Below are positions 1-18,201 of a stretch of 18,325 bases of DNA, in pieces. Both the position numbers and the translations under genes were made by a program. Origin of the DNA: Archangium sp. (lineage in GTDB: Bacteria; Myxococcota; Myxococcia; Myxococcales; Myxococcaceae); assembly GCA_031367385.1 (NCBI GenBank), contig JANLPS010000422.1, positions 1 to 18,325 of the forward strand, written 5' to 3'. Numbering within the stretch: position 1 is the stretch's first letter; every line of letters starts with the position of its first letter. Below the pieces are notes generated by a model. The model was not told the DNA's origin. It worked only from the letters and a program-made list of their open reading frames with translations, and searched no databases.

Positions 1-26
1 CGAAGCTCGTGCGCGCGCTGCTGTAA
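1..26 (+). CDS. Probable 3' end of an upstream gene (…KLVRALL*), partial
   Basis: The frame starting at nt 3 reads AAG CTC GTG CGC GCG CTG CTG TAA with G/C at every third position, followed by a structured intergenic region. Too short to identify. Confidence 0.4.
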
Positions 27-51
27 GACGCACACTCCTGTGAGCGAGCCC

Positions 52-124
52 AACTCTCATGGTGGGCTTGTCGAACCATGGGAAACGGTGCCCGGTTCGT
101 GGTTCGACGCTCACCATGAGAGTT
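52..124. repeat. Long imperfect inverted repeat / hairpin (about 25-bp stem)
   Basis: AACTCTCATGGTGGGC (52-67) pairs with GCTCACCATGAGAGTT (109-124) with one G-T pair. After a 2-nt bulge, GTCGAACCA (70-78) pairs perfectly with TGGTTCGAC (100-108). Confidence 0.9.
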
Positions 125-151
125 CTTCGTTTACGGAGAGGGCAACGAAGA
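124..151. terminator. Second hairpin, possible terminator or 3' stabiliser for the minus-strand radical SAM operon
   Basis: TCTTCGTT (124-131) and AACGAAGA (144-151) form an 8-bp stem with a 12-nt loop, 4 nt past the stop at 156. There is no clear U-tract. Confidence 0.4.
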
Positions 152-155
152 GAGC

Positions 156-356
156 TCACTCGCCCAGCAACGATTGCAGCGTCTTCAACGCGGCCTCGGC
201 ACGGGCGATCGCCTTGAGCTGCTTTCGCTTCAGCACCGCCAAAGAGCCCCCGCACAACGGGCACGTCTGCGCCTGCGGGTAGATGTGCCGATTACACCCC
301 GGGCACCGCGTCAGCTGCGGAGGCAGCCGCCCTTTGACCCTCGGCGCCGTGCTCAC
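156..356 (-). CDS. Small zinc-ribbon protein (CxxC-x10-CxxC) with a basic amphipathic C-terminal helix
   Basis: 66 aa with CPGCNRHIYPQAQTCPLC. Its GTG start overlaps the radical SAM TGA stop (GTGA, 353-356), which indicates translational coupling. Confidence 0.85.
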   Translation of the reverse strand: MSTAPRVKGRLPPQLTRCPGCNRHIYPQAQTCPLCGGSLAVLKRKQLKAIARAEAALKTLQSLLGE

Positions 357-1627
357 GGCAGCACCGGCAACCGCACCGCACGCCCCCGCGGAGGCCGAAG
401 CGTATTCGGCAACGCTGCTGGCAACGGTGCATCAATCGGCTCTTCAACCAGCCGAAACAGCCCTTGGTCGAAGGGCGTGCCCGGCGCGTCTTTCACCTTT
501 TCGACCCGCTCGCGCAGCCCCTCTTTTTCGAGCTCGAGCACCCGGTGGTGGCAGTACGGGTTGTTGCCCGGCTTGCCGAACATGACCGTCGTGGTCCACG
601 AGCAGCCGCCGCGGCAGACGTCGGCGTAGTAGCAGGTGCGGCATCGCCCCCAGAGCTCGTTGACGGTGCGGTCGCGGGTGAAGCTCAGCTCGGGTGACTT
701 GACCCAGATGTCTTCGATGGTCAGGTCGCGAATGTTGCCGCCGGTGTACCCGCTGGTCGGCAGCGAAGGGCACCCCTTCACCGTGCCGTCGGCCTCGAGG
801 CCAATCGTGTTCTGCCCGGCGTTGCAGCCAATCCAATGGCCTTTGCCGGTTTCTCCGCCGCGCCAGAGGTGCTCGTACGGCCCGAAATAGCCAATGTTGT
901 TGCCGGGTACCATCAGCAGGCCCTGCTCGAGACCCCGGTGATAGAGCGAGGCCAGCTGCGGGTAGAGCTCGAGGAGCTGGTAGGGCTGGAGCAGCAGCTC
1001 CGGGTGATCGACCGCGTTGCCCATCGCGACGGTGAGCTGCACCTGCCAGTGGGTCGAGCCGGCGTCGATGATGCTCTGCATCACCTCGGGTAGCTGCTTC
1101 CACGACAGGGCGCCGATTTGCGTGTTGTTGCCGACGGTGATGCCGTGGCGGCGCAGGCGCTCCATCGCTTCGAGGGCCGAGCGGTAGCTGCCTTGAACGC
1201 CGCGAATGCGATCGTGGGTCTCTTCGATGCCATCGATTGAAATCGACACGCCTTGCAGCCCAGCATCGGCCGCGGCTTTGACTCGATCTTCGGTGAAGTT
1301 GCGACCACCGCTGGTCATCGTCGAGTCCATCCCAGCGTCGCGAATGGCGCGAATCAGCCGCGTCCAGTCTTTGCGCAGGTAGGCCTCGCCTCCGATGATG
1401 GTGACTTCGCGGCACCCCAACGCCGCCAACTGGGCGACGACGTCGAGGGCCTCTTCGGTGCTCAGCTCGTCTTTACGGGCCGACCCGGCGCGCGAACCAC
1501 AGTGGTTGCAGGCCAGGTCGCATTTGAGCGTGATCTCCCAGACCGCGTAGACGGGCCGACACGTGCGCAAGTCATCATCGGTGACGAACCGCTTCACCGC
1601 TGGCGCATCGCTTATCGGCCCGAACAT
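353..1627 (-). CDS. Radical SAM/SPASM peptide or protein maturase, splicease-like (PlpX/PcpX; nif11-class maturase 3 / Y_X(10)_GDL-associated type)
   Basis: YAVWEITLKCDLACNHCGSRAG contains CxxxCxxC, and the GGE motif is present (IIGGEAYLRKDW). SPASM cysteines are seen in GCNAGQNTIGLEADGTVKGCPSL, CRTCYYADVCRGGCSW and NNPYCHHR. PGNNIGYFGPYE matches my recollection of this subfamily. Confidence 0.88.
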   Translation of the reverse strand: MFGPISDAPAVKRFVTDDDLRTCRPVYAVWEITLKCDLACNHCGSRAGSARKDELSTEEALDVVAQLAALGCREVTIIGGEAYLRKDWTRLIRAIRDAGMDSTMTSGGRNFTEDRVKAAADAGLQGVSISIDGIEETHDRIRGVQGSYRSALEAMERLRRHGITVGNNTQIGALSWKQLPEVMQSIIDAGSTHWQVQLTVAMGNAVDHPELLLQPYQLLELYPQLASLYHRGLEQGLLMVPGNNIGYFGPYEHLWRGGETGKGHWIGCNAGQNTIGLEADGTVKGCPSLPTSGYTGGNIRDLTIEDIWVKSPELSFTRDRTVNELWGRCRTCYYADVCRGGCSWTTTVMFGKPGNNPYCHHRVLELEKEGLRERVEKVKDAPGTPFDQGLFRLVEEPIDAPLPAALPNTLRPPRGRAVRLPVLP

Positions 1628-1631
1628 TCGG

Positions 1632-2171
1632 CTACCAGTTGGTGCCGACGGAGCCCAAGTCTTTGAGCGCGAGGTTCAGCGCCTTGACCGCCTTCTTCGC
1701 CTCGGTGGTGGCTTGCTTGTTCAGCTTGCCCGCCGCGATCGACGCCTCGATGGTGCTCAAGTTGGTCTCGATGCTGTCGCGAAAGCCCGAGAGGTCATCG
1801 CGCAAGACCACGCCGTACATCGGCATGATGCGAATCGGAGCGGGGCCCGGCAAGGGTCGTGAGGTCGGCAGCCCCGCGAGCACCGGCTTGAGCGAGTTGA
1901 TCGCCGACTGGAGATCTTTCGCCGCCGCCTTGGCGCGGGTCAGCTCGGTGCCTTGCAGCTTGCCGTCACGCGCGACTTCTTTCGCGTTCGGCTTGCCCTT
2001 GGCGATGTTGGCCTTGACCTGATCGAGCGCCACTTGAATGCCATTGCGCAGCGACCCGACCTGGTCGCGAATGAACACGCCGTACATCGGGCGAACAACG
2101 CCACCCGGGCGAGCAGGTTTCACGGGCTTCGCAACGGGTCTCGTCTCTTCGGTGCTTCGAACTGCGGCCAT
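1632..2171 (-). CDS. Two-repeat helical protein with two PMYGV motifs; putative splicease substrate (179 aa)
   Basis: The ATG at 2171 has GAGGGGG 6 nt upstream, so it is preferred over the TTG at 2186. The stop is 4 nt before the radical SAM ATG. The internal duplication has an 89-aa period. Y30 and Y119 are the only tyrosines. Confidence 0.8.
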   Translation of the reverse strand: MAAVRSTEETRPVAKPVKPARPGGVVRPMYGVFIRDQVGSLRNGIQVALDQVKANIAKGKPNAKEVARDGKLQGTELTRAKAAAKDLQSAINSLKPVLAGLPTSRPLPGPAPIRIMPMYGVVLRDDLSGFRDSIETNLSTIEASIAAGKLNKQATTEAKKAVKALNLALKDLGSVGTNW

Positions 2172-2206
2172 GTGGTGCCCCCTCAAGAGGTCCTGCGGTG
2201 TGCGAA

Positions 2207-2223
2207 TGACCTAAACCAGGTCA
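2207..2223. promoter_or_regulatory. Palindromic operator candidate TGACCT-N5-AGGTCA in a divergent promoter region
   Basis: Perfect 6-bp inverted repeat in the 95-bp gap between the divergent starts at 2171 (-) and 2267 (+). Confidence 0.45.
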
Positions 2224-2266
2224 GATTGTTCTGCCAAGGGGGGGAGGGCGAAGTAATTGACGATTC

Positions 2267-3679
2267 ATGGACAGACTGCTGCTGATTGAGGGCCGATGGG
2301 AGAAAAGCGCCTCGAATGCGTCGATTCTGGCGCCTTGGGACCAACGGGTTGTCGCACTCGCGGCACAGGCGTCTGCCGAGCAGGCCGAACGGGCCTTGGC
2401 GTTCGCGTCGGCGGGCCGGGGTCGCTTGGCCGCGCTCTCGGGTGGGCAGCGTCGAAAGGTGCTCGACGGCATCGTCGCTGGGCTGACCGCACGCGCAGAT
2501 GCGTTGGCGCAGGTCATCTGCCATGAGGCGGGCAAGCCGTTGACGGCGGCTCGGGGAGAAGTCGCCCGGGCGATCGAGACCTTTCGCCTGGCCTCGGCCA
2601 CCCTCGCCGGCTTCGGCGGCAGCGTGGTGCCAGTCGATCTCGCCGCGGGCGCTGAAGGCTCGGAGTGCGAGGTGCGGCGCTTTCCCGCTGGGGTGGTGGT
2701 GGGGGTGGTGCCCTTCAATTTCCCGCTGAACTTGGGCGCGCACAAGGTCGCTCCGGCGCTGGCCGTGGGCGCCCCGATCATCGTCAAGCCGCCTCCGCAA
2801 GCGCCGTCAGCGATGGGCATGCTGGCCGAGATCGCGCTCGCCGCCGGAGCAGACCCCGCTGCGATGCAGGTCATCTCGTGTGACAACACCGTCGCCGAGA
2901 AGCTCGCCACCGATGCCCGGGTGCGGGTGATGAGCTTCACCGGCAGCGCGAAGGTGGGTTGGCACTTGAAGGGCCTGGTCAAGGCCAAGGCGGTGCTCGA
3001 GCTCGGGGGCAATGCGGCGGCGATTGTCTGTGCCGACGCCGACCTCGAGAGAGCCGCCTCGAAGCTTGCGCTGGGTGCCTTCATTTACTCGGGGCAGGTG
3101 TGCATCAAGGTGCAGAGGGTCGTCGTCGAAGCCGCCGCGTGGGGTGCGTTCGTGCCGAAATTTCTGGCCGCCGTCGCCGCTTTGAAAGTCGGAGACCCCG
3201 CCAAAGAAGAGACCCAGGTCGGCCCGGTCATCGACGCGCGCTCAGCCGACCGCATTGAAGGGTGGGTCGACGAAGCGATCGCCGCTGGCGCGACCGTTTT
3301 GAAGCGGGGTTCGCGCAAGGGGCAGCTGATCGAGCCAATCGTGCTCACCGACGTGCCTCGAACCGCCAAGGCCTACGCCGAGGAGATCTTCGGGCCGGTG
3401 GTGTTGCTCGAAAAGGCCGCCGATTTTGCGAAGGCCCTCGAGGCGGTGAATGACTCGCAGTACGGGCTGCAAGCGGCCATTTTCACCAATGATTTGAAGA
3501 AAGTTCGCACCGCGTTTCACGAGCTCGAGGTCGGCGGGGTGATCGTCAACGACGCTCCGAGCTTTCGCTCAGACAACATGCCGTACGGCGGCGTGAAGGG
3601 CTCGGGCCTGGGCCGAGAAGGCGTTCGCTACGCGATGGAGGACTTCACCGAAGAACGGGTGCTCGTCTACCGGCCGTGA
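2267..3679 (+). CDS. NAD(P)+-dependent aldehyde dehydrogenase family protein
   Basis: Motifs PFNFP, IIVKP, FTGS, catalytic Glu in LELGGN, catalytic Cys in SGQVCI, EEIFGP and PYGGVKGSGLGREG; 470 aa. Substrate cannot be determined. Confidence 0.95.
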   Translation: MDRLLLIEGRWEKSASNASILAPWDQRVVALAAQASAEQAERALAFASAGRGRLAALSGGQRRKVLDGIVAGLTARADALAQVICHEAGKPLTAARGEVARAIETFRLASATLAGFGGSVVPVDLAAGAEGSECEVRRFPAGVVVGVVPFNFPLNLGAHKVAPALAVGAPIIVKPPPQAPSAMGMLAEIALAAGADPAAMQVISCDNTVAEKLATDARVRVMSFTGSAKVGWHLKGLVKAKAVLELGGNAAAIVCADADLERAASKLALGAFIYSGQVCIKVQRVVVEAAAWGAFVPKFLAAVAALKVGDPAKEETQVGPVIDARSADRIEGWVDEAIAAGATVLKRGSRKGQLIEPIVLTDVPRTAKAYAEEIFGPVVLLEKAADFAKALEAVNDSQYGLQAAIFTNDLKKVRTAFHELEVGGVIVNDAPSFRSDNMPYGGVKGSGLGREGVRYAMEDFTEERVLVYRP

Positions 3680-3682
3680 AGG

Positions 3683-6600
3683 TCACTGAATGAAGCGACC
3701 GGCCATGCGCCACTGGGTACCGTCGGTCTCTTGCCAGGTCAGAAACAGTTGGTCGTTGAACTGCGTGAAGCGGGGGAACGAGGCCAGCAAGAAATTCGGG
3801 AGCGTGGCGTTGTTCCATGATGTGTCCGTTCCTGGCTGGCACGGCACGGGGTTCAACTGGTGGGTGGTCAGATCGTAGAGGCCGAGCAGAATCTTGCCGG
3901 AGGGGAAGGGCTCTGCGTAGGCGACGAGCGCTGTCGAGCCCCAAGGCACCACATCAAACCCAGTGACCGCGGGCACGAGCTGCTGCTTGAAGGGCGTACC
4001 GACGTCGTCGACGCTGTTCGCCATCAGCTGGGTTGAACCTTGAGAGGTGAGCACGAGCGAGCGATCGCGCAGAGCAATGCCCCGCACCTTGTCTGAGGGG
4101 TTCGCCGAGACGGGGTCATTCATCCACCCCGAGCTGCCGTTGACGAAGCGCTTGACCTGCCCCGACGCGTCGGTGGCGACGACCGAGGGCTGACCTTTGA
4201 CGTGAAAGTCGAACATGGCGGTCGAGGTCATCGGTGAGTAGGAGTTGGTCATGTCGACCTTGAGCGGAGCGCTCCAGGTCTTACTCAGGCTGTTGAACGT
4301 CTGAGCCTCGAGGCCGGGCAAGGCGGTGGCGAGCAACGTGAGGGTCGTGCCATCGGTGCCGAGTGCGATGAATGCGGGAGTGTTGTTGATCGGTGCCCAG
4401 CTGCCCGAGTTCGGCGTGTACTCGAAGAGGCCGTTCGCCGGGTCGGTCTGCGAGAGCGCCGCGTAGCCGAGGGGGCCGACGGCGAAGACGGTGGTGCCGC
4501 TGACCGGTGTGGTGTTCGCGCCAGAGAAAGGCGTCAACGTGTTGAAGTCATTGACCGTGCACGGCTGCATGGTCATGCAGCTCGGGTCATAGGTCTGCAT
4601 CCACCACAGTGACCACCTGCCGTCAGACTCCACCTTGCGCCCGACGATCTGCTGCTGTTGGGTGTTGTAGTTGATCGACAGAAACCCGGGCCGGGGTTCT
4701 TGGGTTGAGCTGCCCCGGCTCCGAACGTGAGGGCTGCCTTGGGAGTTCACGTTGAACGTCCCATGCACGTCGGGTATCGCGAAGCCGTCCGTGGTCTTCA
4801 CTCCGGTGAGGGCCACGCCGATGGGCGGCTGGTTGAAGGGCAATGGCTTCGAAAATCGTACGAGCAGGGTGTGGCCATCGACGCCGACCTGCAGTGGGTC
4901 GCTGAACCCCGCGTCGAGCACCCCTGAGCCAGTGAGGGGCCGGTCGCAGCTGTAGAACAAGCCGATGGGCGAGATTCGCAAGTCGCACTTCGGCGGCGAC
5001 GCATTCGTGAACGTAAACCGGGTGTCTTGTCTGATCACCTCGTTGCCCTTGTAGTTGGCATGAAAGGTCACGGTGTAGTCGAGCGTCCCCGTGTTGAAGG
5101 GAGCCGGAAAGCTGACGGTCGTGCCGTTCGGCGTGCCGCTGAAGTTGATGCATGACTCGTTGACGCCCCCGTCGAACCCGGGCCCGGGGCAGGGCGGTGT
5201 CACGGTCCACGAGTAGGTGGCCAGGTTGAAGTCGCTGGGCGCGTTGGTGATGGTGGCCGTGAGGCTCATGGCCGCGCTCCCGTAGCTGGTCACCGGCTGC
5301 ACTGCGCTGCCCGAGGTGATCTTCACCGTCACCGAGAGGCCTCCTGGAGGGTCGATGAAGAGCGTCACCGTGGCGGGGTCGCTCAAAATGCCGAGGGTGG
5401 TCTCGACCTGCAGCGTGAGCACCATCGTGGTGAGCGACGTGACGACTGGCGCTGTGATGGCGAGGGTCGCGCTGTCAGTCGTGTCGATGTTCGCCGAAGG
5501 AGGGCCCGAGGTCTGATGCCACCGGTAGTGTGCGATGGCCTGCGAGTCGTTGCTCGTACTGGTGCTCGCGCTGAAGGTGGCCGGTTGGCCCGATTGCAAG
5601 CGAGCGGGTGAGGTGATGAGCGCGGTTGGTTTTTTGCCGACCAGCACGGTCACATGGGCCGGGCCGCTGGTCTGTTGGCGCGAATCGGTGACCGTCAAAT
5701 CGAAGTCGAGCTTCTGCACGGTGCCCGGCGCGGTGAATCGCGTTGTGCCTGCGACGCTCGAGTCGTTGGGCGAGAGCGCGACCTGCGGGCCGGTTGCCGT
5801 CTGCTTCCAGTGGTACACGAGTGGCTGCACGCCGCTTGAATCAATGCCGTTCAAGACCACCTGCGAGCCCGGGTCAGCGAACACCACGGGTGCCGAGACG
5901 CGGGCCATCAGAATCGAGTTGTCGATGAAGCCTCCGTCGACCTCGCCCAAATCGAGGCGCATCGGAGCGCCGAAGGTGACGGTGAGCACGCCGAGCTCGT
6001 TCTCGCCGGGGCCGACCAAGATGTTGGCGATTTTGAGCGAGCTCACGTCACTGCGCTCGACCCCCGCCTGGTAGAGCCCTGGCGCGAGCATGGGGAAGTT
6101 GAAGTGCCCCTCGCCGTCGGTGTCGGTGGCCCTCGCAATGCCGTTGAGCACCACCCGCACGTGCGCAGAGGCGAGGGGCATGCCAGTGTCGAGGCGCACC
6201 ACGCCGCTCAGGGTTGAAGGCCGAATGTCTCCCGGGGGTGAGGCCTCGAGTGACACGCTCGAAAGCCGCGCTTCTTGCCCGCCCGAGAGCGTCACTTCAC
6301 GGCTCTCGAGCAGGTAGCCGGGCCGGTAGATGCTCAGCTCAACGACGCCTTCGGCGAGGCCCTCGAGCAGAAAGCTGCCGTCATCGCCGGTGGTGGTCAG
6401 AAACGCAGTGCTGGCGACGAACACCGTGGTGCCCGAGTGCCCCGACGAGCCAGGGTGATCACCCAGCAAGACCTTGCCGCTGACGGCGGCGTTGCGGCCG
6501 AGTGAGACTTCGCCGAGCTCGACGTCGCGGCCGGGGCCTGCCTTGACCGCCTCGAAGTCGATCACCTTCTGGCGGTCGACCGTGCCGTCATGGTCGGAGT

Positions 6601-6877
6601 CGAAGGTGATCAGCGCCTGGCCAGACTTTTCGGTGATGCCTCCGATCAAGAAGCGGCCGGTCTCGCCGTTCGAGACGGTCTTGACCGAGCTGTTCATCAG
6701 CTGCACGGTAGCTCCGCCGGCAGGCCTCGAGCCGATGCGGCCCGGCACGGAGTACACCAGCGTACCTTGCAGCGTGCCCGGCCCCGGTGGAGGCGGCGGG
6801 TTGGGCACATCGAGGTCGAAGCAGCCGGTCAGCGACAGCACCGCGAGGGGCACCAGAACCTTCGAAAGCGTCGTCAT
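3683..6877 (-). CDS. Large surface lipoprotein with carboxypeptidase-regulatory-like (transthyretin-fold) repeats, PKD/Ig-like domains and a beta-rich C-terminal region
   Basis: Signal peptide ending in the lipobox LSLTG-C, then a proline linker. Repeats of GTLQGTL/VSGKVLL/LSGVVRL…TxxxGxFxxxxLxxG. Two PKD-like units (LVYHWKQTATGP, AHYRWHQTSGP). A GGAG-like RBS lies upstream; 1064 aa. Confidence 0.8.
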   Translation of the reverse strand: MTTLSKVLVPLAVLSLTGCFDLDVPNPPPPPGPGTLQGTLVYSVPGRIGSRPAGGATVQLMNSSVKTVSNGETGRFLIGGITEKSGQALITFDSDHDGTVDRQKVIDFEAVKAGPGRDVELGEVSLGRNAAVSGKVLLGDHPGSSGHSGTTVFVASTAFLTTTGDDGSFLLEGLAEGVVELSIYRPGYLLESREVTLSGGQEARLSSVSLEASPPGDIRPSTLSGVVRLDTGMPLASAHVRVVLNGIARATDTDGEGHFNFPMLAPGLYQAGVERSDVSSLKIANILVGPGENELGVLTVTFGAPMRLDLGEVDGGFIDNSILMARVSAPVVFADPGSQVVLNGIDSSGVQPLVYHWKQTATGPQVALSPNDSSVAGTTRFTAPGTVQKLDFDLTVTDSRQQTSGPAHVTVLVGKKPTALITSPARLQSGQPATFSASTSTSNDSQAIAHYRWHQTSGPPSANIDTTDSATLAITAPVVTSLTTMVLTLQVETTLGILSDPATVTLFIDPPGGLSVTVKITSGSAVQPVTSYGSAAMSLTATITNAPSDFNLATYSWTVTPPCPGPGFDGGVNESCINFSGTPNGTTVSFPAPFNTGTLDYTVTFHANYKGNEVIRQDTRFTFTNASPPKCDLRISPIGLFYSCDRPLTGSGVLDAGFSDPLQVGVDGHTLLVRFSKPLPFNQPPIGVALTGVKTTDGFAIPDVHGTFNVNSQGSPHVRSRGSSTQEPRPGFLSINYNTQQQQIVGRKVESDGRWSLWWMQTYDPSCMTMQPCTVNDFNTLTPFSGANTTPVSGTTVFAVGPLGYAALSQTDPANGLFEYTPNSGSWAPINNTPAFIALGTDGTTLTLLATALPGLEAQTFNSLSKTWSAPLKVDMTNSYSPMTSTAMFDFHVKGQPSVVATDASGQVKRFVNGSSGWMNDPVSANPSDKVRGIALRDRSLVLTSQGSTQLMANSVDDVGTPFKQQLVPAVTGFDVVPWGSTALVAYAEPFPSGKILLGLYDLTTHQLNPVPCQPGTDTSWNNATLPNFLLASFPRFTQFNDQLFLTWQETDGTQWRMAGRFIQ

Positions 6878-7674: not shown

Positions 7675-9069
7675 TCACCGAGCAGCGCTCGAAGCTGCCG
7701 CCTTCAGGGCCGCTACTGCCTTGTGAAAGTCGAGCAAGGCGTCGACTTCACGCAAGCGCGCTTCTGCGCTGGCTTGTTCTCTGAGGTTGACGAAGAGCAA
7801 ATTCGATTCACCGAGCTCAAAACGCGTTTGCTCGCCCTGTTCGAGCTGGGTGGCGAGCTCGATTTCTTGCCGAATCAAGGCGACCCGCAATTGCGCCGCG
7901 TGAATCGCAGAGAGGGCATCTGTGGCCTCGAGCAGAACACGTTCGCGCGCCAACTTGAGCTGAGCCTCGAGCTTGCTCGTCACCGCCTGGGCGGCCCGAA
8001 GCCGGCCGAGCGGCCCGCGGTACAGCAACGGTACATCGAGCAACAACGAGAACTCGACCTCCGTCTTGCCCAACGGGTCGTATTTGGCCCCTGGTGAGCG
8101 CCCCACGTCTTGAGACACCGTGGCCGTGAAGTCGAGCGCAGGGAGCAATTGGTTGCGCAGAAACCCAAGCTCGACGTCTTGCTGCTTCATTTGCCCACTC
8201 AGTCGCTGAACTTCAGGTCGACGCTCGACGGCGAGGTCGAGGTCGAACGATGGCACAAGGCCATCATCAGGGTCTGGCAAGGCCGCTGGCAGGCGGGCTT
8301 CGTGTACGAGCGAGGGCTTGGCTTCGTCATCGCGAACGAACAGTGAGAGCTCGAGTGCGGCCTGCTCGAGCCCACGCTGGGCCTGCACCCACAAGGCCTG
8401 TCGTTGCATGAGCGCCCGCTGGTTGTCTTTTTGTTCGAAGAGGGGCACGTCACCGGCGCTCGCCCGCGCTGACAACTGCTCGTCGCGACGCTGGGCGATC
8501 TTGAGGAGCGTACCGGCGATCTCGCGGCGGTGGCCCGCGGCGACCCAGTCCCAGTAACGAGAACTCGCCAAGCGGGTGATCTCAATTCGCTGCTGCTCGA
8601 CGCCCTGGCCGGCCAGCTGGTGGCCAAGCTCGGCGCGCCGAATCGAGGCACGCCGCCGGTCGATTGGCCCGTTTCGCAACAGCGGTATCGCCGCTCCCGC
8701 GCGAAGCTCTCCGCCCGTCCACGTCGTTCGCTCGCCGTAATAGTCCTGAATGAGCCCAGCGCCGAGCCGATAGCCGGCAAAGAGGCTGGTGCCCCACAGC
8801 GGCGTCGGCACCTCGACCGCGGCGTCAATTCGGGTTTGTGGGTAACCGGAGATGGGTACGACCCAGGCTCGGGCGCGGAGGCTCGGGTCGAAGATACCGT
8901 TCGCCGCTTGGAGCTCGCCCTCAGCCGCGTCGACCTCGCTGCGAGCGGCCACCAGCGAGGGAAAAAGTGCCTCTGCGGAGGCCAGCACTTCAGCGAGCGA
9001 AAGCGGGCCCGTTCTCGGCAGCGGCGTTTGCGAGGGGTTCAGAGAAGCCAGCATCAGCGCAAGCAGCAT
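7675..9069 (-). CDS. TolC-family outer membrane efflux protein
   Basis: Short signal peptide MLLALMLAS, LSLAEVL…P start, YWDWVAAG, RRPEV, LLPALDF, a C-terminal RFELGESNLLFVNLREQ and helical repeats. The ATG at 9069 overlaps the HlyD stop (TGATG). Confidence 0.88.
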   Translation of the reverse strand: MLLALMLASLNPSQTPLPRTGPLSLAEVLASAEALFPSLVAARSEVDAAEGELQAANGIFDPSLRARAWVVPISGYPQTRIDAAVEVPTPLWGTSLFAGYRLGAGLIQDYYGERTTWTGGELRAGAAIPLLRNGPIDRRRASIRRAELGHQLAGQGVEQQRIEITRLASSRYWDWVAAGHRREIAGTLLKIAQRRDEQLSARASAGDVPLFEQKDNQRALMQRQALWVQAQRGLEQAALELSLFVRDDEAKPSLVHEARLPAALPDPDDGLVPSFDLDLAVERRPEVQRLSGQMKQQDVELGFLRNQLLPALDFTATVSQDVGRSPGAKYDPLGKTEVEFSLLLDVPLLYRGPLGRLRAAQAVTSKLEAQLKLARERVLLEATDALSAIHAAQLRVALIRQEIELATQLEQGEQTRFELGESNLLFVNLREQASAEARLREVDALLDFHKAVAALKAAASSAAR

Positions 9070-10373
9070 CACTTGACCTTCTGGTCGGCCGAGAAACCGG
9101 GCTGCGGCTCTGCCGGCCGAACCACTGGAGGAAACCCATTGAACCTGCGCCACAGCTCGTAGCCGAGCCTGACCGTGTCGAGCAGCACCCAGCCGTTGGC
9201 TCTGACCCCCTGCCGCAGGTAGGTGCCGCTGGGCCATGCGTCGACGCCGTCAGGGCGAACCAAGACCCGAAACCTGCCTTTGCCATCGTCGCTGGAGTCG
9301 ATGAGTGCAACGGTGCCTCCGAACGAGCCGATCGCCACAGACGGCCAGCCTGAGAATTGAACTGCCGGCCAACCCTCGAACTGCAGCCGCACTGGCCGCC
9401 CCTCTGAGAGCAATGGCATGTCATTGCCATCAACCCAGAGCTCGACGGCGCGCTCAGCTGCGTCGGGCACCAAGATGAGCAGGGGCTCCCCGGCCTTGAC
9501 GAAAGAGTTGCCTTGGCCAATCGACACCCGAAGCACGGTGCCGTTGACCGGGGCCCTGATGTCCATTGTCTGTTGACGCGACAGTCGCACTTCGACTCGT
9601 GCCAATTCAGCGGCTGCGTTCGCCTCTTCTGACAACGCCGCGGCCTCTTGCGCGTGAGCATCGTCGATTGAGGCAGTCAGATCATGCTCGATGCGAAAGC
9701 GGTCGGCCTCGAGGGCGGCCTCCTCGCCCAGCGCCGCTTTCAGTGCCGCTTGCGCACGCTCAACCTCGGTGGCTGCGCGCACATCGTCGAGTTGGGCCAG
9801 CTCAAGAGTACGAACCGAGGTCAACCCGCTCCCGAGGAGCTTGGTTTGGCGCTCCAGGTTCGAGTGCGCGGTGACCGCTGCGGCCTGCGCGGCAGCGAGG
9901 GCCTGGCGAGTGGCGCTGCTTCGCTCTTGGGCCATGGTGATACGGCTCAGGGCTGCGCGCACACCTGCCCCGCGCGACAATTCGAGCGCCCGCTGACGGT
10001 TCTGAATCGATGAGGCGCGCAAGGCCGCCTGTTCTCGCCGGGCGACGCCCGCCTCTCGCTCGTCGGCCAATCTGCTCAGAATCTCTGGCGCGTTGTCACT
10101 GAGCTCAAGGAGCAGGTCTCCCGCCATCACCCGAGAGCCCTCGCGCACATGCCAGGTCGTCACCCGGCCTTCTATCGGGGCGTCGATTTCTTGTGGTCGT
10201 TCATTGGCAGAAACCGCCACGACGCGCCCTGACCCGGCGATGTTTTGCTGCCAAGGGGTGATGATCAACGTAAGCGCGAACAGCGCGCCCGACCCCGCGA
10301 GCAACCGCACGAAAACGCGGGTCGACCTGGGCGTTGGCACCAAGAGGGAGGCGGTTCGTTGGCCCAGCATCAT
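9069..10373 (-). CDS. HlyD-family membrane fusion / periplasmic adaptor protein
   Basis: N-terminal transmembrane segment, PWQQNIAGSGRV, lipoyl half-motifs IDAPIEGRV…VREGSRVMAGDLL and IRAPVNGTV, a long coiled coil, and VRLQFEGWPAVQFSGWP. The ATG at 10373 overlaps the ABC stop (ATGA). Confidence 0.9.
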   Translation of the reverse strand: MMLGQRTASLLVPTPRSTRVFVRLLAGSGALFALTLIITPWQQNIAGSGRVVAVSANERPQEIDAPIEGRVTTWHVREGSRVMAGDLLLELSDNAPEILSRLADEREAGVARREQAALRASSIQNRQRALELSRGAGVRAALSRITMAQERSSATRQALAAAQAAAVTAHSNLERQTKLLGSGLTSVRTLELAQLDDVRAATEVERAQAALKAALGEEAALEADRFRIEHDLTASIDDAHAQEAAALSEEANAAAELARVEVRLSRQQTMDIRAPVNGTVLRVSIGQGNSFVKAGEPLLILVPDAAERAVELWVDGNDMPLLSEGRPVRLQFEGWPAVQFSGWPSVAIGSFGGTVALIDSSDDGKGRFRVLVRPDGVDAWPSGTYLRQGVRANGWVLLDTVRLGYELWRRFNGFPPVVRPAEPQPGFSADQKVK

Positions 10374-12370
10374 GGCGTCTCTCGTCTCTGAGTAAGATCG
10401 CTCAGGTGTCGAACATCGTGGCAAGCGTTTCGAAGCTCAACCGCCGCGTCTGACACCAGGCAGACCAGGGTCCATCGGGCGGCGGGGTTCGTGAGGGCAG
10501 CCACACACTTGAGCCGGGTCACCGAATCGAGCACCTCCAGCGACTCGTTGATGACGATGAGGCGGGGTCGACCAGCGATCGCCCGCGCCACCAACAGCTG
10601 AACGACGTTCGCCTGGCTCAACGTGAAGCCGGTCGAGAGCAGTGGCGCATCGAGCCCGTCGGGCAGCAGGCGCACGGTCTCCAACAAGCCTACGGCGTCG
10701 AGTGCCGCTCGGGCCTCGAGGGCCGAAATGCTCTGCCGCCCCACGGCCACATTTTCGAGCACTGAGCCATCGAAGAGGTCTCCGCGCTGAATCAGACTGA
10801 CCTGTTCGCAGACCGCCGATGCCCGTGCTCGAGAAGTCTCGACGCCATTGAGCACCACCGAACCCGAGGAGGGCGCGCGCAACCCCGCGAGCCACTCCGC
10901 CAGTGGGTGGCCCAGCGCGCCGATGATCGCCAATCGGGCGCCCGGTGCCACCGTGAAAGACAATGGCAGGTACCCCTCGTGAGCGACGGCCTGAACCTCA
11001 ACGCTCAAGGGCCCCTCGAGGGGTATGGCCTCGACGAGGCTCTCGTCTTCGATGGGCACATCGAGCACGTGCCCCAACTTGTCGATTGAGGTCATCAAAT
11101 CGTAAGCGGCATCGAGCAACTTGCCGCTCTTGGCCAGGCCCGAGGTGATGGAGGCCACGATGAGCTCTGCGGCAATCAATTGGCCCAGCGTGAGCTCTCG
11201 CTGCACGACGAGCCACCCGCCCAGCCCGAGCAACGATGCGCTGGCGATGATTTGAAGGCCCAGGCCGCCGACCGTCTGCCCGAACACGACTCGAAAATGG
11301 CGACGTCGTGATTCAAGGTAGCGCCTGGTCAGGGCATCGGCCCGGTCGACCGCGAACTGGGCGCCCTCGGTGCCTCGAAAAATGGCCGTGACCGAGGCGA
11401 GTGTCTGAAGCCATGCCGCGACGCCATATTTGGCTTTGCTCTCGTCGATGCTGGTCGCCAACCCCAATCGCCATGGCGTGACGACCACAAGCCCGATGAA
11501 GACCACCAACACCAGGGCGAAACCCAGCAGCGCAGGGTGATAGAAGGCCAACACGAGCACGCCGATGCCGACTTGCAAGACCGTCGCAATGCCATCGGTG
11601 AGCAACTGACTCGAAGTTTTCTGGAGCGTCACGACCTCGAAGAACCGGTTGACGGCCTCGGCGCCAAACGGGTGTTTGGTCAAACGCTTCACGCGAGGGA
11701 GTCGCCACGCCAGATCCATCGAGGCTCGAATGAAGAGCCGCTCCTGTATCAACTCGACGAGCTGGGTCTGCAGCGCCCTGAAGAGGCCCTGAAAAGTCAG
11801 CGCTGCCAGCAAGATCATCGACAACACGAAGATCGGTTGAAGGAGCGTGCCAAAGGCCACCGAACCGACGAGCGCCTGCACAGCGAGCGGCGTCGCGAGG
11901 GTCAGCAAGCCGACCACTGCCGCATAGGCGACGATGACAGCGAGGTCATCGCGCTCGAGGCGGAGCAGCGCCCACAGCCGTTGAGCGGGTCGCGGCTGGT
12001 GCGAAAGGGCCTCGAGCGGTGCGCTCGGCACGGCGGTGACCCACTCGGCATCAGCCCACGCATCGAGCACAGACCGTTGCAGCCACTGGCCTGGCTCTCC
12101 CGGTCGCTCGACCAACAGCGCCTCTCCGCGCTCCTCACGCACCAGAACGGGTGCCCACCCAGAGGCCGCGGTACCTGCGCTCGCTCGTGGCACTCCTCCG
12201 GCCTTCGCGTCATCAAGCAACAGACCACACGACGCCCCGGCGGCCCTGAGCGAAGGCAGGTCTCGAACGCTTTGTTGAACGTGAAGAGGGTCGAGCTCGA
12301 GCCGCAGCGCGCTGGCCAGCGCCTTGATGAGCCAGATCTTCGATTGTGCTTCTGACAAAGGCAGCGTCAT
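10370..12370 (-). CDS. Type I secretion-like ABC transporter (transmembrane plus nucleotide-binding domain) with degenerate ATPase motifs
   Basis: Six-helix ABC membrane domain (LLTLATPLAVQALV…, LTLGQLIAAELIV) and a nucleotide-binding fold (LFDGSVLENV, LPDGLDAPL, ARAIAGRPRLIV). Walker A reads GALGHP, the signature reads LSQAN and Walker B reads LIVINE. GAGG RBS upstream. Confidence 0.85.
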   Translation of the reverse strand: MTLPLSEAQSKIWLIKALASALRLELDPLHVQQSVRDLPSLRAAGASCGLLLDDAKAGGVPRASAGTAASGWAPVLVREERGEALLVERPGEPGQWLQRSVLDAWADAEWVTAVPSAPLEALSHQPRPAQRLWALLRLERDDLAVIVAYAAVVGLLTLATPLAVQALVGSVAFGTLLQPIFVLSMILLAALTFQGLFRALQTQLVELIQERLFIRASMDLAWRLPRVKRLTKHPFGAEAVNRFFEVVTLQKTSSQLLTDGIATVLQVGIGVLVLAFYHPALLGFALVLVVFIGLVVVTPWRLGLATSIDESKAKYGVAAWLQTLASVTAIFRGTEGAQFAVDRADALTRRYLESRRRHFRVVFGQTVGGLGLQIIASASLLGLGGWLVVQRELTLGQLIAAELIVASITSGLAKSGKLLDAAYDLMTSIDKLGHVLDVPIEDESLVEAIPLEGPLSVEVQAVAHEGYLPLSFTVAPGARLAIIGALGHPLAEWLAGLRAPSSGSVVLNGVETSRARASAVCEQVSLIQRGDLFDGSVLENVAVGRQSISALEARAALDAVGLLETVRLLPDGLDAPLLSTGFTLSQANVVQLLVARAIAGRPRLIVINESLEVLDSVTRLKCVAALTNPAARWTLVCLVSDAAVELRNACHDVRHLSDLTQRRETP

Positions 12371-12458
12371 GCGGCCTCAGAAGTAGGAGCCTCACTTGCT
12401 TTAGAAACTGAGAAAAAATCGATGACCATCTGAGAAAGCACGAATGTGCGCCCCCCGC

Positions 12459-13376
12459 TCACCGCGCGATTCGCTTCTCGCGCCCCATCGCAAGGAGCTC
12501 ACCTTCATCTCGGGAGAGGAGGCCCCGCAGCAGCGGGTGCGCAAAGGTGCGCTCAACGGTGATGGCGTAAAAGGTCTCAAAGAGACCAGGCACCACGCAG
12601 TGCTCATACAGCAGGCCCTGGCGGAGCTCGTCTCGAACGACGACCGATGGCACCAGCGCGAAGGCGGTCGAGTCTCTCGCGAGTAAGCGCATGGTCGCCA
12701 TGTCGTCGACCTCCGCGAGAATGCGGATTCGGACGCCGAGCTGTTCGCAGAGCGCCCCGAACTCGGAGCGAATTTCGCTTTCGGGCCCGGGGAGAATCAT
12801 GGCCGCATCGCCGATGCTGGCCGGAAACCGAAAGGCGCGGCGGCGGCTGGAGCCGACGATGCTGACCGGTTGCCGGGCGATGCGTCGACACCGGAGCAGG
12901 CGCCCTGGTTCGGGCGAGCAGGGCCGGTTCGCGAGCACGACATCGAGCGAATGGTCTTCGAGTCGTACGAGGAGCTCGTCGAGGCCTCCAGCCACCAGGC
13001 TGAACCGAACGTCAGGCAAAGCGAGGAGCGGCTTGATGAACGACTCCTGGAAGTTGCGAGAGAGCGTTGCGACGGCGCCCACCCGTAAGATCTGCTGCCG
13101 CGGCCGGCCAAGCTCAAGCGTCGAGAGCAGCTGGGCGCCCGCTCCAAAGATCTGCTCGGCGTAGGCGAGCGCCAGCTTGCCCGCCTCGGTGAGCGCGAGC
13201 CTGCGCCCTTCTCTGAGAAACAGCGCTGCGCCCAGCTGCCCCTCGAGTTGCCGAATTTGTGATGAGAGCGCCGACTGCGCGACCCGCAGCCTGGCCGCCG
13301 TTCGCGTGAGGTTGCCGTCTTTCGCGACGGCCCAGAAGTAGCGCAAGTGATGAAAGTTGAATTGGTCGAGGTTCAT
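12459..13376 (-). CDS. LysR-family transcriptional regulator, NhaR-like
   Basis: N-terminal helix-turn-helix FNFHHLRYFWAVAKDGNLTRTAARLRVAQSALSSQIRQLE, LFLREGRRLALTEAG, and EVDDMATMRLLAR; 305 aa; divergent from dabB. Confidence 0.93.
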   Translation of the reverse strand: MNLDQFNFHHLRYFWAVAKDGNLTRTAARLRVAQSALSSQIRQLEGQLGAALFLREGRRLALTEAGKLALAYAEQIFGAGAQLLSTLELGRPRQQILRVGAVATLSRNFQESFIKPLLALPDVRFSLVAGGLDELLVRLEDHSLDVVLANRPCSPEPGRLLRCRRIARQPVSIVGSSRRRAFRFPASIGDAAMILPGPESEIRSEFGALCEQLGVRIRILAEVDDMATMRLLARDSTAFALVPSVVVRDELRQGLLYEHCVVPGLFETFYAITVERTFAHPLLRGLLSRDEGELLAMGREKRIAR

Positions 13377-13379
13377 GGC

Positions 13380-13428
13380 TTCTTTAAAATAGAACGATAT
13401 CTGCTCATTAATGTGTTTTTAACGAACG
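13380..13428. promoter_or_regulatory. LysR-type binding sites in an AT-rich divergent promoter
   Basis: Dyad TTCT-N7-AGAA (13380-13394) contains T-N11-A. A second, imperfect T-N11-A site spans 13414-13426. GAACG recurs at 13392 and 13424, 32 bp apart. The 76-bp gap is much more AT-rich than its flanks. Confidence 0.65.
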
Positions 13429-13452
13429 CACAGCCCGCGTACACCTTCGCGA

Positions 13453-15054
13453 ATGAATACGCCCGAAGCGTTGTCGTTCGTTGTCAGTGCCTTGGCGCTC
13501 GCTATACCAACCACGTTCGCGGTGGCCGCATTCGCCTCGCCGCCTCGCCTCCTGAGTCGGCACGCTTCACTGGCTGGCGGCCTTGCGCTCTTGCTTTCGC
13601 TCGTCTTCACCCTCGCGGCGACCCTCGGTGGCGCCTGGGCGGCCGGGACCGTGAGAACTTTCGGGGTGCGTGTCGACACCGTGACGTGCGTGATGTTGAT
13701 GCTCGTGTGCGGCATCGGGTTGGTCATCGCCCGCTACTCTGAGCGGTCTTTGCTGGGCGACCCTGGGCTCGCGAGATACTCGCGATGGCTCTTGCTCACG
13801 CTCGGCACGGTGACCGTGCTGGTGATCGCGAACAACCTGCTCATCGTCGCAGCCTCGTGGACGGCGACGAGCCTCGCGCTGCATCAACTGCTGACCTTCT
13901 ACCCTGACCGTACCGCTGCGCTCGTTGCGGCCCACAAGAAGTTTCTCATCAGTCGGCTTGCAGATGTGTGTCTCTGGTCTTGCCTCGCCTTCATTCGGGT
14001 GAACGTGGGCAGCCTCGATCTCGACCGCATCGCCGACTGGGCGGCCGCGCACCCGGGTCTCACACCGTCGATGCACGTGGCGACCGTGCTCGTCGTCATC
14101 GCGGTGGTGCTCAAGTCTGCGCAGCTGCCTTTTCATGGGTGGCTGACGCAGGTGATGGAGGCCCCGACTCCGGTGTCTGCGCTGCTGCACGCCGGAGTCG
14201 TCAACATCGGCGGCTTCTTGATGATTCGCCTGGCCCCGCTGATGGTGCACGCTGCGCTGGCCCAGACGCTGCTGGTGATGATCGGGCTCGCCACGACGAT
14301 TCTGGCGGCCTTGGTCATGACCACGCGGGTCAGCGTCAAGGTGGCGCTCGCGTGGTCCACCTGCGCGCAGATGGGCTTCATGCTGGTTCAATGCGGTTTG
14401 TATGCGTGGCATCTGGCGTTGCTCCATCTCGTGGCGCACTCGCTTTACAAGGCGCATGCCTTTCTCAACTCGGGCACCGCCGTCGACGACTGGCGTCGCC
14501 AATCGGGAGCGAAACGTCAGGGCCCCCCGTCGTGGAGTCGCCTGTGCATCACGGCAGTGATGACAATCGTCGGAGCGCTCGTGGTCGTCAGAATTCTGCA
14601 GCGCCGGTTCGGGGGGCCACACGATTCGCTCTCGGTCGACGTGCTCGCCTTGATGGTCGGCCTCTCGTTCGTGCCGACATTCGCACGGCGGGGGGGCGCT
14701 GGGTCGACAGCGAGCCCCACCGTCATTGCCCGTGGCCTGTGTGTCTGCGCCCTCTATGTGGCTTGGCATGGGGTCGCCGCGCGACTTGTGCCTTCGCCTC
14801 CACTTGAAGCACCGAATGAGCTCGGGTGGGTTGTGGTCGGAGCGGGGTTCGTGGGTCTCTTCGCCGCCCAAATGATGCTCCAGCTGCACCCGCAGGGGCG
14901 CTTCTCGCGCACGCTCTACCCATGGTTGTTCGCGGGGCTGTACCTCGACGAATACTTCACACGGCTGACGTTTCGCCTGTGGCCGCCTCGACTCCCTCGA
15001 ACCGAAAACCTTCGCCCGATGGCCCGTCAGCAGGCCCTGGTGCCCTCACCATGA
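13453..15054 (+). CDS. dabB: DAB inorganic carbon transporter membrane subunit (NuoL/MrpA-like; DabB/MpsA)
   Basis: Highly hydrophobic; TSLALHQLLTFY, AHKKFLISRLAD, KSAQLPFHGWLTQVMEAPTPVSALLHAGVVN, STCAQMGFMLVQCG, HLVAHSLYKAHAFL and GLYLDE. Lies directly upstream of a DUF2309 gene. Confidence 0.9.
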   Translation: MNTPEALSFVVSALALAIPTTFAVAAFASPPRLLSRHASLAGGLALLLSLVFTLAATLGGAWAAGTVRTFGVRVDTVTCVMLMLVCGIGLVIARYSERSLLGDPGLARYSRWLLLTLGTVTVLVIANNLLIVAASWTATSLALHQLLTFYPDRTAALVAAHKKFLISRLADVCLWSCLAFIRVNVGSLDLDRIADWAAAHPGLTPSMHVATVLVVIAVVLKSAQLPFHGWLTQVMEAPTPVSALLHAGVVNIGGFLMIRLAPLMVHAALAQTLLVMIGLATTILAALVMTTRVSVKVALAWSTCAQMGFMLVQCGLYAWHLALLHLVAHSLYKAHAFLNSGTAVDDWRRQSGAKRQGPPSWSRLCITAVMTIVGALVVVRILQRRFGGPHDSLSVDVLALMVGLSFVPTFARRGGAGSTASPTVIARGLCVCALYVAWHGVAARLVPSPPLEAPNELGWVVVGAGFVGLFAAQMMLQLHPQGRFSRTLYPWLFAGLYLDEYFTRLTFRLWPPRLPRTENLRPMARQQALVPSP

Positions 15055-17543: not shown

Positions 17544-18201
17544 GGGGGTCACGCGTCTCTCAGCGTACGCCGGAGCGGAGATCGCGCTGCTCACGCAGCA
17601 CGGCAAAGAGCAGGTCATCGCTCCACTTTTTCACCAAGGCCTGGCCGCACCGGTGCGAGTCGTCACCGGGTTCGACACCGACGTCTTCGGCACATTCACG
17701 CGCGACGTTTCGCGTTTCGGCAGCCAGATGGAGGCCGCGCGCCAGAAAGCCCGTGTGGCACTGGCGTTGTCTGGGCTCTCCGTCGGCTTGGGCAGTGAAG
17801 GTTCGTTCGGGCCAGGGCCCGGTGGTTTTGGCCCGTGGAACCTCGAGTTGCTCATTCTCATCGATGCAGCACGGGGCATCGAGATTCTCGGTCGCGGGTA
17901 CGCACCCGGCCGCCATTGCCACGCGCTGGTGACAAACCAGCACGCGCTCGAAGCGCTCGCCCTTCGCGCCGGGTTTCCCGAGCATGGCCTCGTCGTTCGC
18001 CCTGACGGCCCGAGCGGCCAGCCAGTTCTCAAGGGCATTCGAGCCTTGCCGGAGTTGCATCGGGCGTGGAGCGAAGGGCTCAGCGCGTCATCGACGGGCG
18101 GCGTCTTTGTCGAGAACGACCTGCGGGCGCACGTGAACCCAACTCGCATGTCGAACATCGAGGCTGCCGCGCGCGACCTAATTGCAATGCCGATCAGATA
18201 A
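17536..18201 (+). pseudogene. DUF6671-like protein, C-terminally truncated by IS insertion
   Basis: ALLTQHGKEQVIAP, DTDVFGTFTRDV, GLGSEGSFGP, GFPEHGLVV and ENDLRAHVNPTRM match my recollection of this family. The ATG at 17536 overlaps the dabA end. The cysteine-rich tail I expect after NPTRM is missing, and the stop codon lies inside the IS end. Confidence 0.7.

Follow-up and report, generated by a model that had tools for sequence, protein, structure and literature searches.

Do three adjacent genes near one end of a myxobacterial contig form a tyramine-splicing (spliceotide) cassette, and what would each of their products contribute? The question concerns contig JANLPS010000422.1 of Archangium sp. 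(assembly GCA_031367385.1), a complete contig of the source genome, which was analysed over its whole length of 18,325 nucleotides (the window). In splicease chemistry, the tyrosine of an X-Tyr-Gly (XYG) motif is excised except for its C1, and a new C–C bond is formed to the preceding residue (PMC9811515, PMC11414181, PMC11626197). Activation and substrate recognition by these enzymes are an open and active question, the activating role of Y proteins and of a leader helix having been shown recently. The locus encodes a predicted substrate protein, a radical S-adenosylmethionine (SAM)/SPASM enzyme and a separate zinc ribbon, and comparison of their sequences with those of related systems makes a tyramine-splicing cassette the probable, and best, explanation of the locus as a whole. 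The features on which this reading is built are the following.

1632–2171, minus strand: predicted substrate gene; 179 amino acids, basic (isoelectric point 10.3), no signal peptide visible
353–1627, minus strand: radical SAM/SPASM enzyme, assigned to the splicease clade; 424 amino acids, TIGR03913-type core that lacks the C-terminal zinc ribbon
156–356, minus strand: separately encoded C4 zinc ribbon with a 26-residue helix; 66 amino acids, GTG start, proposed trans-acting subunit
353–356, minus strand: GTGA start/stop overlap of the enzyme and ribbon genes, with putative translational coupling
2076–2090, minus strand: predicted splice site 1, P28-M-Y30-G-V32, in the context RPMYGVF
1809–1823, minus strand: predicted splice site 2, P117-M-Y119-G-V121, with an invariant YG
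2178–2184, minus strand: Shine-Dalgarno-like GAGGGGG before ATG 2171

Gene layout and enzyme identity

The three co-oriented open reading frames (ORFs) all lie on the minus strand (2171–1632, 1627–353 and 356–156). The 4-nt gap between the first two (1628–1631) and the GTGA overlap between the last two are as described in the original prediction, which had been made from the sequence alone. ATG 2171 is favoured over TTG 2186 as the substrate start because GAGGGGG precedes it, and database protein P0001, which is 98% identical to the substrate, has the same 179-residue start. The GC content at third codon positions (0.83, 0.83 and 0.87 for the three ORFs; 0.81 for a neighbouring dehydrogenase gene) is coding-like. 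A scan of window positions 1–2400 found no sigma-70-type promoter, and its terminator-like matches were at chance level.

The enzyme scores 591.5 bits against the TIGR03913 hidden Markov model (HMM; cut-off 591.75), aligning to model positions 5–393 of 477, and 518.9 bits against TIGR04103 (cut-off 725), while every other family HMM yields at most 161 bits, including PqqE (98) and NirJ (125). Across 382 residues it shares 53% identity with a Nostoc enzyme that carries the annotation nif11-class maturase 3 (type I, TIGR04103-annotated). The Nostoc locus comprises a Nif11 precursor with an LYG motif and a small downstream Y-type ORF. Compared by eye with PlpY and PcpY as given in the PMC11414181 supplement, this ORF has their LLPR...KQAL helix. 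Given the HMM scores and the identity to the type I enzyme, clustering with PqqE or NirJ is not the case, and the sequence assigns the enzyme to the tyramine-splicease clade, as the original prediction had proposed over a PqqE, NirJ or Ahb affiliation. The CxxxCxxC motif and the full set of SPASM cysteines that it had listed are likewise present: C36, C40 and C43, and the seven SPASM cysteines (268, 286, 329, 332, 338, 342 and 359), are invariant in all 43 aligned relatives. The C-terminus is an LPVL-like tail, as in most of the clade. Among solved structures, a search by sequence returned no splicease and nine distant matches, the best of which is SkfB.

The last 57 positions of the TIGR03913 model are absent from the enzyme score and are supplied by the downstream ribbon ORF (37.5 bits); among 208 genomes of the host's family, the cut-off is passed on the core alone in four. 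One point weighs against the splicease reading at this level: the enzyme falls below both curated cut-offs. TIGR03913 enzymes were reportedly proven to be spliceases in a 2022 study by Scott.

The substrate and its predicted splice sites

Exactly two tyrosines, Y30 and Y119, are present in the 179-residue protein, both within PMYGV, as had been noted before. The two motifs form a 26-nt direct repeat (88% identical, 267 nt apart), and of 139,880 stop-to-stop segments in the six frames of the genome, 12 contain PMYG and this one alone contains it twice. The two halves of the protein are 35% identical (E = 7 × 10−12), each comprising a disordered Pro/Gly-rich segment, then (M/L)YG, then a helical hairpin. 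The structure model has helices at residues 30–58, 75–93, 121–147 and 152–178, with residues 1–28 and 98–117 disordered. The context of the sites is close to that of characterised ones, QPMYGVV in PcpA and AAMYGVVF in PlpA3, as given in the supplement to PMC11414181.

Conservation of the sites was followed in an alignment of 20 sequences, composed of the window protein, 10 of 11 database matches (the 98% identical one being left out) and nine proteins from related loci. Y30, G31, Y119 and G120 are invariant in all 20, the residue before the site 2 tyrosine is Met in 17 and Leu in three, and 40 of the 55 tyrosines lie in YG. Searched with a profile, a set of 1.84 billion representatives yielded 42 substrate-family proteins, among them one-repeat forms of approximately 70 residues. 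These 42 proteins have 101 tyrosines, 62 of them in YG, where the preceding residue is Leu (29), Met (27) or another (6). In the host's order, the substrate is found in 12 of 363 genomes, its own genome included and all in one family, a count that is a floor from a stricter first look and that overlaps with the loci of the genome-collection scan described below. The gene after the substrate encodes an enzyme 75–100% identical to that of the window in 11 of the 12 genomes and a 31% identical radical SAM/SPASM protein in the remaining one. Homologues of the upstream protein thus keep M/L-Y-G and adjoin a radical SAM gene (YG in 20 of 20 sequences, adjacency in 12 of 12 genomes), in agreement with the original prediction.

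The enzyme would excise tyramine at M-Y30-G and M-Y119-G, leaving two keto-β-Met residues. On the sequence evidence, excision at one or more of these sites is very probable, and excision at both is likely, with somewhat less assurance. That the enzyme acts on these tyrosines and yields another product, such as a Tyr crosslink of the kind made by other SPASM maturases, is very unlikely: the 53% identity to the type I enzyme, the likeness of the sites to characterised splice sites and the invariant Gly after Tyr all argue for splicing, even though both curated cut-offs are missed, the TIGR03913 name claims no chemistry, and a homologous substrate beside a 31% identical enzyme has one LYA site. 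The latter locus (L093, 282–1986) encodes a two-repeat homologue with MYG and LYA next to its radical SAM/SPASM gene, with no ribbon gene seen, and is possibly a separate enzyme lineage on the same scaffold.

Several observations on the substrate count against splicing or against its placement among known precursors. YG is absent from four of the 42 family representatives, and site 1 from two that are full-length; since the family members are kin, the counts above are not independent. The structure model is of low confidence (predicted template modelling score 0.45; mean predicted local distance difference test (pLDDT) 61). PF08898 (DUF1843) matches none of the 20 substrate-family members, and the substrate aligns to DUF1843 peptides over only 17 columns, round the YG. 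Neither Pfam nor NCBIfam has a family for the protein, which shows no Nif11 or NHLP leader match. All 23 short peptides tested from related loci, one of them from a free-ribbon locus, match PF08898 at E ≤ 0.1, and a profile of the short peptides that precede fused enzymes ranks the substrate first in the whole genome (E = 0.0019). The substrate may, on this profile match, be a remote, elongated relative of the DUF1843 peptides. At E 0.001, fold searches found no match to either the substrate or the ribbon model, and the protein atlas yielded no usable match.

The substrate would be used without an N-terminal leader, the hairpin after each site probably serving as a C-terminal recognition element. 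Ketoamides inhibit Ser and Cys proteases (PMC9811515, PMC11414181 and PMC11626197), and the product would be a cytoplasmic, helical 19-kDa protein that inhibits such proteases through two ketoamide warheads. An intact cytoplasmic protease inhibitor is a possible but doubtful outcome, and the weakest step of the explanation. With the same chemistry, the 179-residue protein could be a two-core precursor of RiPPs (peptides synthesized ribosomally and then modified post-translationally), from which an unlinked protease frees short ketoamide peptides that unlinked export may follow. This alternative is rather unlikely, although it draws on three features: both sites come after disordered Pro/Gly/Arg-rich segments in the model; Gly-Gly (residues 23–24 in the window protein) is found no more than 12 residues ahead of site 1 in 13 of the 17 members that could be counted, and ahead of site 2 in 10 of 20; and characterised spliceotides are short cores (PMC11626197). 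Set against release of peptides, a pattern for the C39-type leader consensus matches none of the 20 members, and each site continues directly into a conserved helix. Furthermore, ten wider regions of the clade have only the substrate, enzyme and ribbon genes in common, with no shared protease or exporter and no match to the type I secretion genes of the window. The original prediction had noted no protease or transporter in the operon, and none is conserved across these regions; it had also found no leader and no double-glycine site, and neither a Nif11 leader nor the C39 leader consensus was found, but Gly-Gly does precede site 1. Protein P0040 has a LysM domain fused to a following YG-hairpin unit, a hint that some members of the family are located at the cell wall.

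The separately encoded zinc ribbon

The ribbon ORF matches TIGR03913 positions 421–477 (E = 9 × 10−10), and by this alignment it is the detached C-terminal domain of a catalogued family and no new partner. The 'stand-alone Zn ribbon' first proposed is thus a separate gene, as claimed, but not a new component. The structure model (pLDDT 87) comprises a C4 ribbon and one helix (residues 39–64), and all 43 copies compared, free or fused, keep the four ribbon cysteines. A scan of a genome collection confirmed 592 stretches with related loci, of which the best 80 were analysed. Of these 80 loci, 56 have the ribbon fused to the enzyme and nine have it as a free overlapping ORF, and in 10 it forms the N-terminal part of a precursor-type ORF downstream (nine with YG visible, one incomplete); two further loci have no ribbon nearby, two are cut off by a contig end and one has a broken enzyme. 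The ribbon is found in all ten wider regions of the clade.

The split between enzyme and ribbon is real and conserved. Contigs from all four sequencing runs, three of which are possibly the source of the window DNA, bridge the junction with zero differences, and each of the 12 junctions examined has a start codon overlapping the enzyme stop (11 as ATGA, GTGA or TTGA, one as TGATG). Because the run contigs agree and the homologues keep the overlap, an assembly frameshift does not account for the split. Production of a single fused TIGR03913 protein by ribosomal frameshifting, or a sequencing error, is highly improbable. It would suit a ribbon that lies in the −1 frame immediately at the stop, the fusion seen in 56 of the 80 relatives and the fact that 10 of 12 junctions have nothing like a Shine-Dalgarno word ahead of the ribbon start. 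However, the usable overlapping start persists in junctions of otherwise different sequence, no slippery heptamer is present in the 12 junctions examined, and the contigs derived from reads match the window.

The ribbon-helix would be produced at approximately 1:1 with the enzyme through translational coupling and would dock back on it, replacing in trans the domain that is fused in other TIGR03913 enzymes. Its role in trans is, on balance, most likely activating, by analogy with PlpY and the RhaA leader helix. PMC11414181 reports that spliceases are activated by Y proteins and by the RhaA leader helix, which also work when fused to the enzyme C-terminus, and that an engineered RhaX–leader fusion, with the activating helix on the enzyme C-terminus, splices leader-independently. 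That layout is the natural layout of the fused TIGR03913 enzymes.

The ribbon occupies the gene position of PlpY, yet is not detectably homologous to it; homology to the Y proteins having failed, the activator role is an analogy drawn from gene position and from the pattern of fusions. Compared with 120 Y-family proteins, none of which has a CxxC motif, the ribbon-helix gave hhalign probabilities of 0.4–5.5% and HMM scores of about 0 bits, and the substrate helices score as well as it does, a short look-alike below significance; both results weigh against an activator. The ribbon helix as a PlpY/PcpY homologue, a likeness striking by eye, was rejected after failing four tests. A complex prediction for enzyme, ribbon and substrate scored 0.00 and counts neither for nor against binding.

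The missing homology to Y proteins would also suit a ribbon-helix that acts as a substrate adaptor, its helix pairing with the hairpin, or as a stabilising, largely dispensable lid. So would the helical-hairpin YG peptide found upstream in 49 of the 56 fused loci, and the hydrophobic stretch that takes the place of the helix in precursor-borne ribbons. Such a role remains the less probable one, and two loci argue against it. Locus L103 (genome G211) has the split enzyme and ribbon with a different substrate, containing three HPMYGAPIR repeats, and the L101 enzyme has a ribbon at its N-terminus, as would suit an enzyme-docking module. L101 (2680–4302) is a splicease-like plasmid enzyme encoded beside trypsin-like and M23 peptidases. 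The natural split permits a clean test of the TIGR03913 C-terminal domain, with and without it, and no engineered truncation.

Relation to known systems, history and surroundings

The cassette resembles the TIGR03913/DUF1843 systems in its enzyme core (55–65% identity to fused members), in the C4 ribbon-helix module and in a substrate gene directly upstream, in which Tyr-Gly is followed by a helical hairpin. It differs from them in that the ribbon is a separate, overlapping gene in another frame, and in that the substrate is a 179-residue tandem repeat with longer helices and without the Y-x10-GDL spacing. The type I systems PlpA/PlpX/PlpY and PcpA/PcpX/PcpY (TIGR04103) have the same cysteine set, MYG in a near-identical context, the same gene order and, in the Nostoc locus, a small ORF that overlaps the enzyme stop by 4 nt; in contrast to these, the window has no Nif11 leader, and its small ORF is a zinc ribbon with undetectable Y homology. 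The type II systems (RhaA/RhaX, RcsA/RcsX and RasA/RasX) likewise have no Y protein, but combine an N-terminal leader with a short core, whereas the window substrate is leaderless and a third gene is present.

A further likeness is to myxobacterial systems with a ribbon-led, lipoprotein-like precursor, whose enzymes are 46–61% identical to that of the window. Their ribbon is homologous to the free and fused type (hhalign 96.9% over 27 columns), and its gene overlaps the enzyme stop by ATGA in five of the 10 nearest loci. There, however, the substrate itself begins with the ribbon; next come a hydrophobic stretch, in place of the helix (only the 27 ribbon columns align), and low-complexity YG repeats. 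With a profile of the precursor-type ribbon, the window ribbon ranks second in the genome (E = 1.9 × 10−4), the first being a true precursor on contig C91. That contig of the same genome holds a second splicease-like system (L001, approximately 4828–6443), in which a lipoprotein-like precursor with a zinc ribbon and a CYG site comes before a 46% identical enzyme.

Splicease-like enzymes are found in 80 of the 208 genomes of the host's family, and a high-scoring class (at least 569 bits), which includes L103, in 11 of the 208, with one further incomplete copy. A metagenome scan with a narrower alignment gave five loci, three of them long enough to show the enzyme and two the ribbon. A tree of 45 rows, hand-picked from about 110 loci, was rooted on a single long branch. 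It unites the free-ribbon and fused enzymes in one clade (support 100/99), inside which the fused enzymes form a clade of their own (100/99) that contains one separate split (L081). The clade of the window is supported at 95/92, the deep branches are unstarred, the placement of L103 is not fixed, and the ribbon-on-precursor systems fall in two clades outside the free/fused clade. A history in which the ribbon passed from precursor-borne to free to fused fits this tree; alternatively, one fission may have occurred. The three-gene cassette is proposed to have been inherited within a clade of Myxococcota.

A more far-reaching reading would join these points. The free ribbon-helix would be an essential, non-homologous stand-in for the Y protein, making a natural three-part splicease outside the cyanobacteria; it would be a surviving intermediate, the former leader of a downstream precursor that lost its core, was kept as a coupled activator and later fused to give TIGR03913; and the product would be intact, leaderless and with two warheads. 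All of this holding at once is unlikely. If it does hold, any protein bearing a short tag should be open to splicing by enzyme and ribbon. Engineered helix fusions serve protein labelling.

The splicing chemistry, systems without a Y protein and the TIGR03913/DUF1843 pairing are known already, and the cassette is neither new chemistry nor a new class. The 2022 study by Scott reportedly included natural protein-sized splicease substrates. According to a review, that study confirmed 27 pairs across many genera (PMC10849128). Spliceases without a Nif11 leader or Y protein are published, and non-cyanobacterial spliceotide pathways are stated to have no Y protein (PMC11414181). In the searchable literature, no description of a split enzyme or a two-repeat substrate was found, although the tables of Scott 2022 could already list this clade. 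The conserved split and the two-repeat substrate family look undescribed, and the suggestion that substrate type and gene set might be new applies to these two, but not to the absence of Nif11 and Y components. The cassette links one zinc ribbon in three placements, on the precursor, free and on the enzyme, and the substrate family would add a tandem leaderless scaffold with two ketoamides, a known protease-inhibitor pharmacophore. The quorum-sensing response of Chromobacterium subtsugae offers a clue to the timing of production: a DUF1842/DUF1843 and TIGR03913 operon is strongly upregulated in it (log2 of about 5; PMC12114271).

Other genes of the window were considered as partners. TolC/HlyD/ABC, an aldehyde dehydrogenase, an M48 peptidase and DabAB are unmatched in all ten wider regions, apart from a generic LysR match, and were rejected; a C39 domain was not found on the window's ABC protein. 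Positions 7675–18201, unrelated to the cassette, encode the type I secretion set TolC/HlyD/ABC, LysR, a DabB/DabA inorganic carbon transporter and DUF6671, and positions 3683–6877 on the minus strand a 1064-residue lipoprotein-like protein with carboxypeptidase-regulatory and PKD domains. Before the cassette, a divergent tRNA-Pro(CGG) gene is present in six of 13 sequences scanned (L013, L016, L018, L019, L031 and L096), the window not being among them, and in two of these six loci an integrase-like gene lies beyond it. On the other side, the stretch separating the ribbon gene from a convergent one holds an inverted pair of repeats resembling repetitive extragenic palindromic sequences (52–124), the 24-nt core of which occurs in 74 copies in the genome at up to two mismatches.

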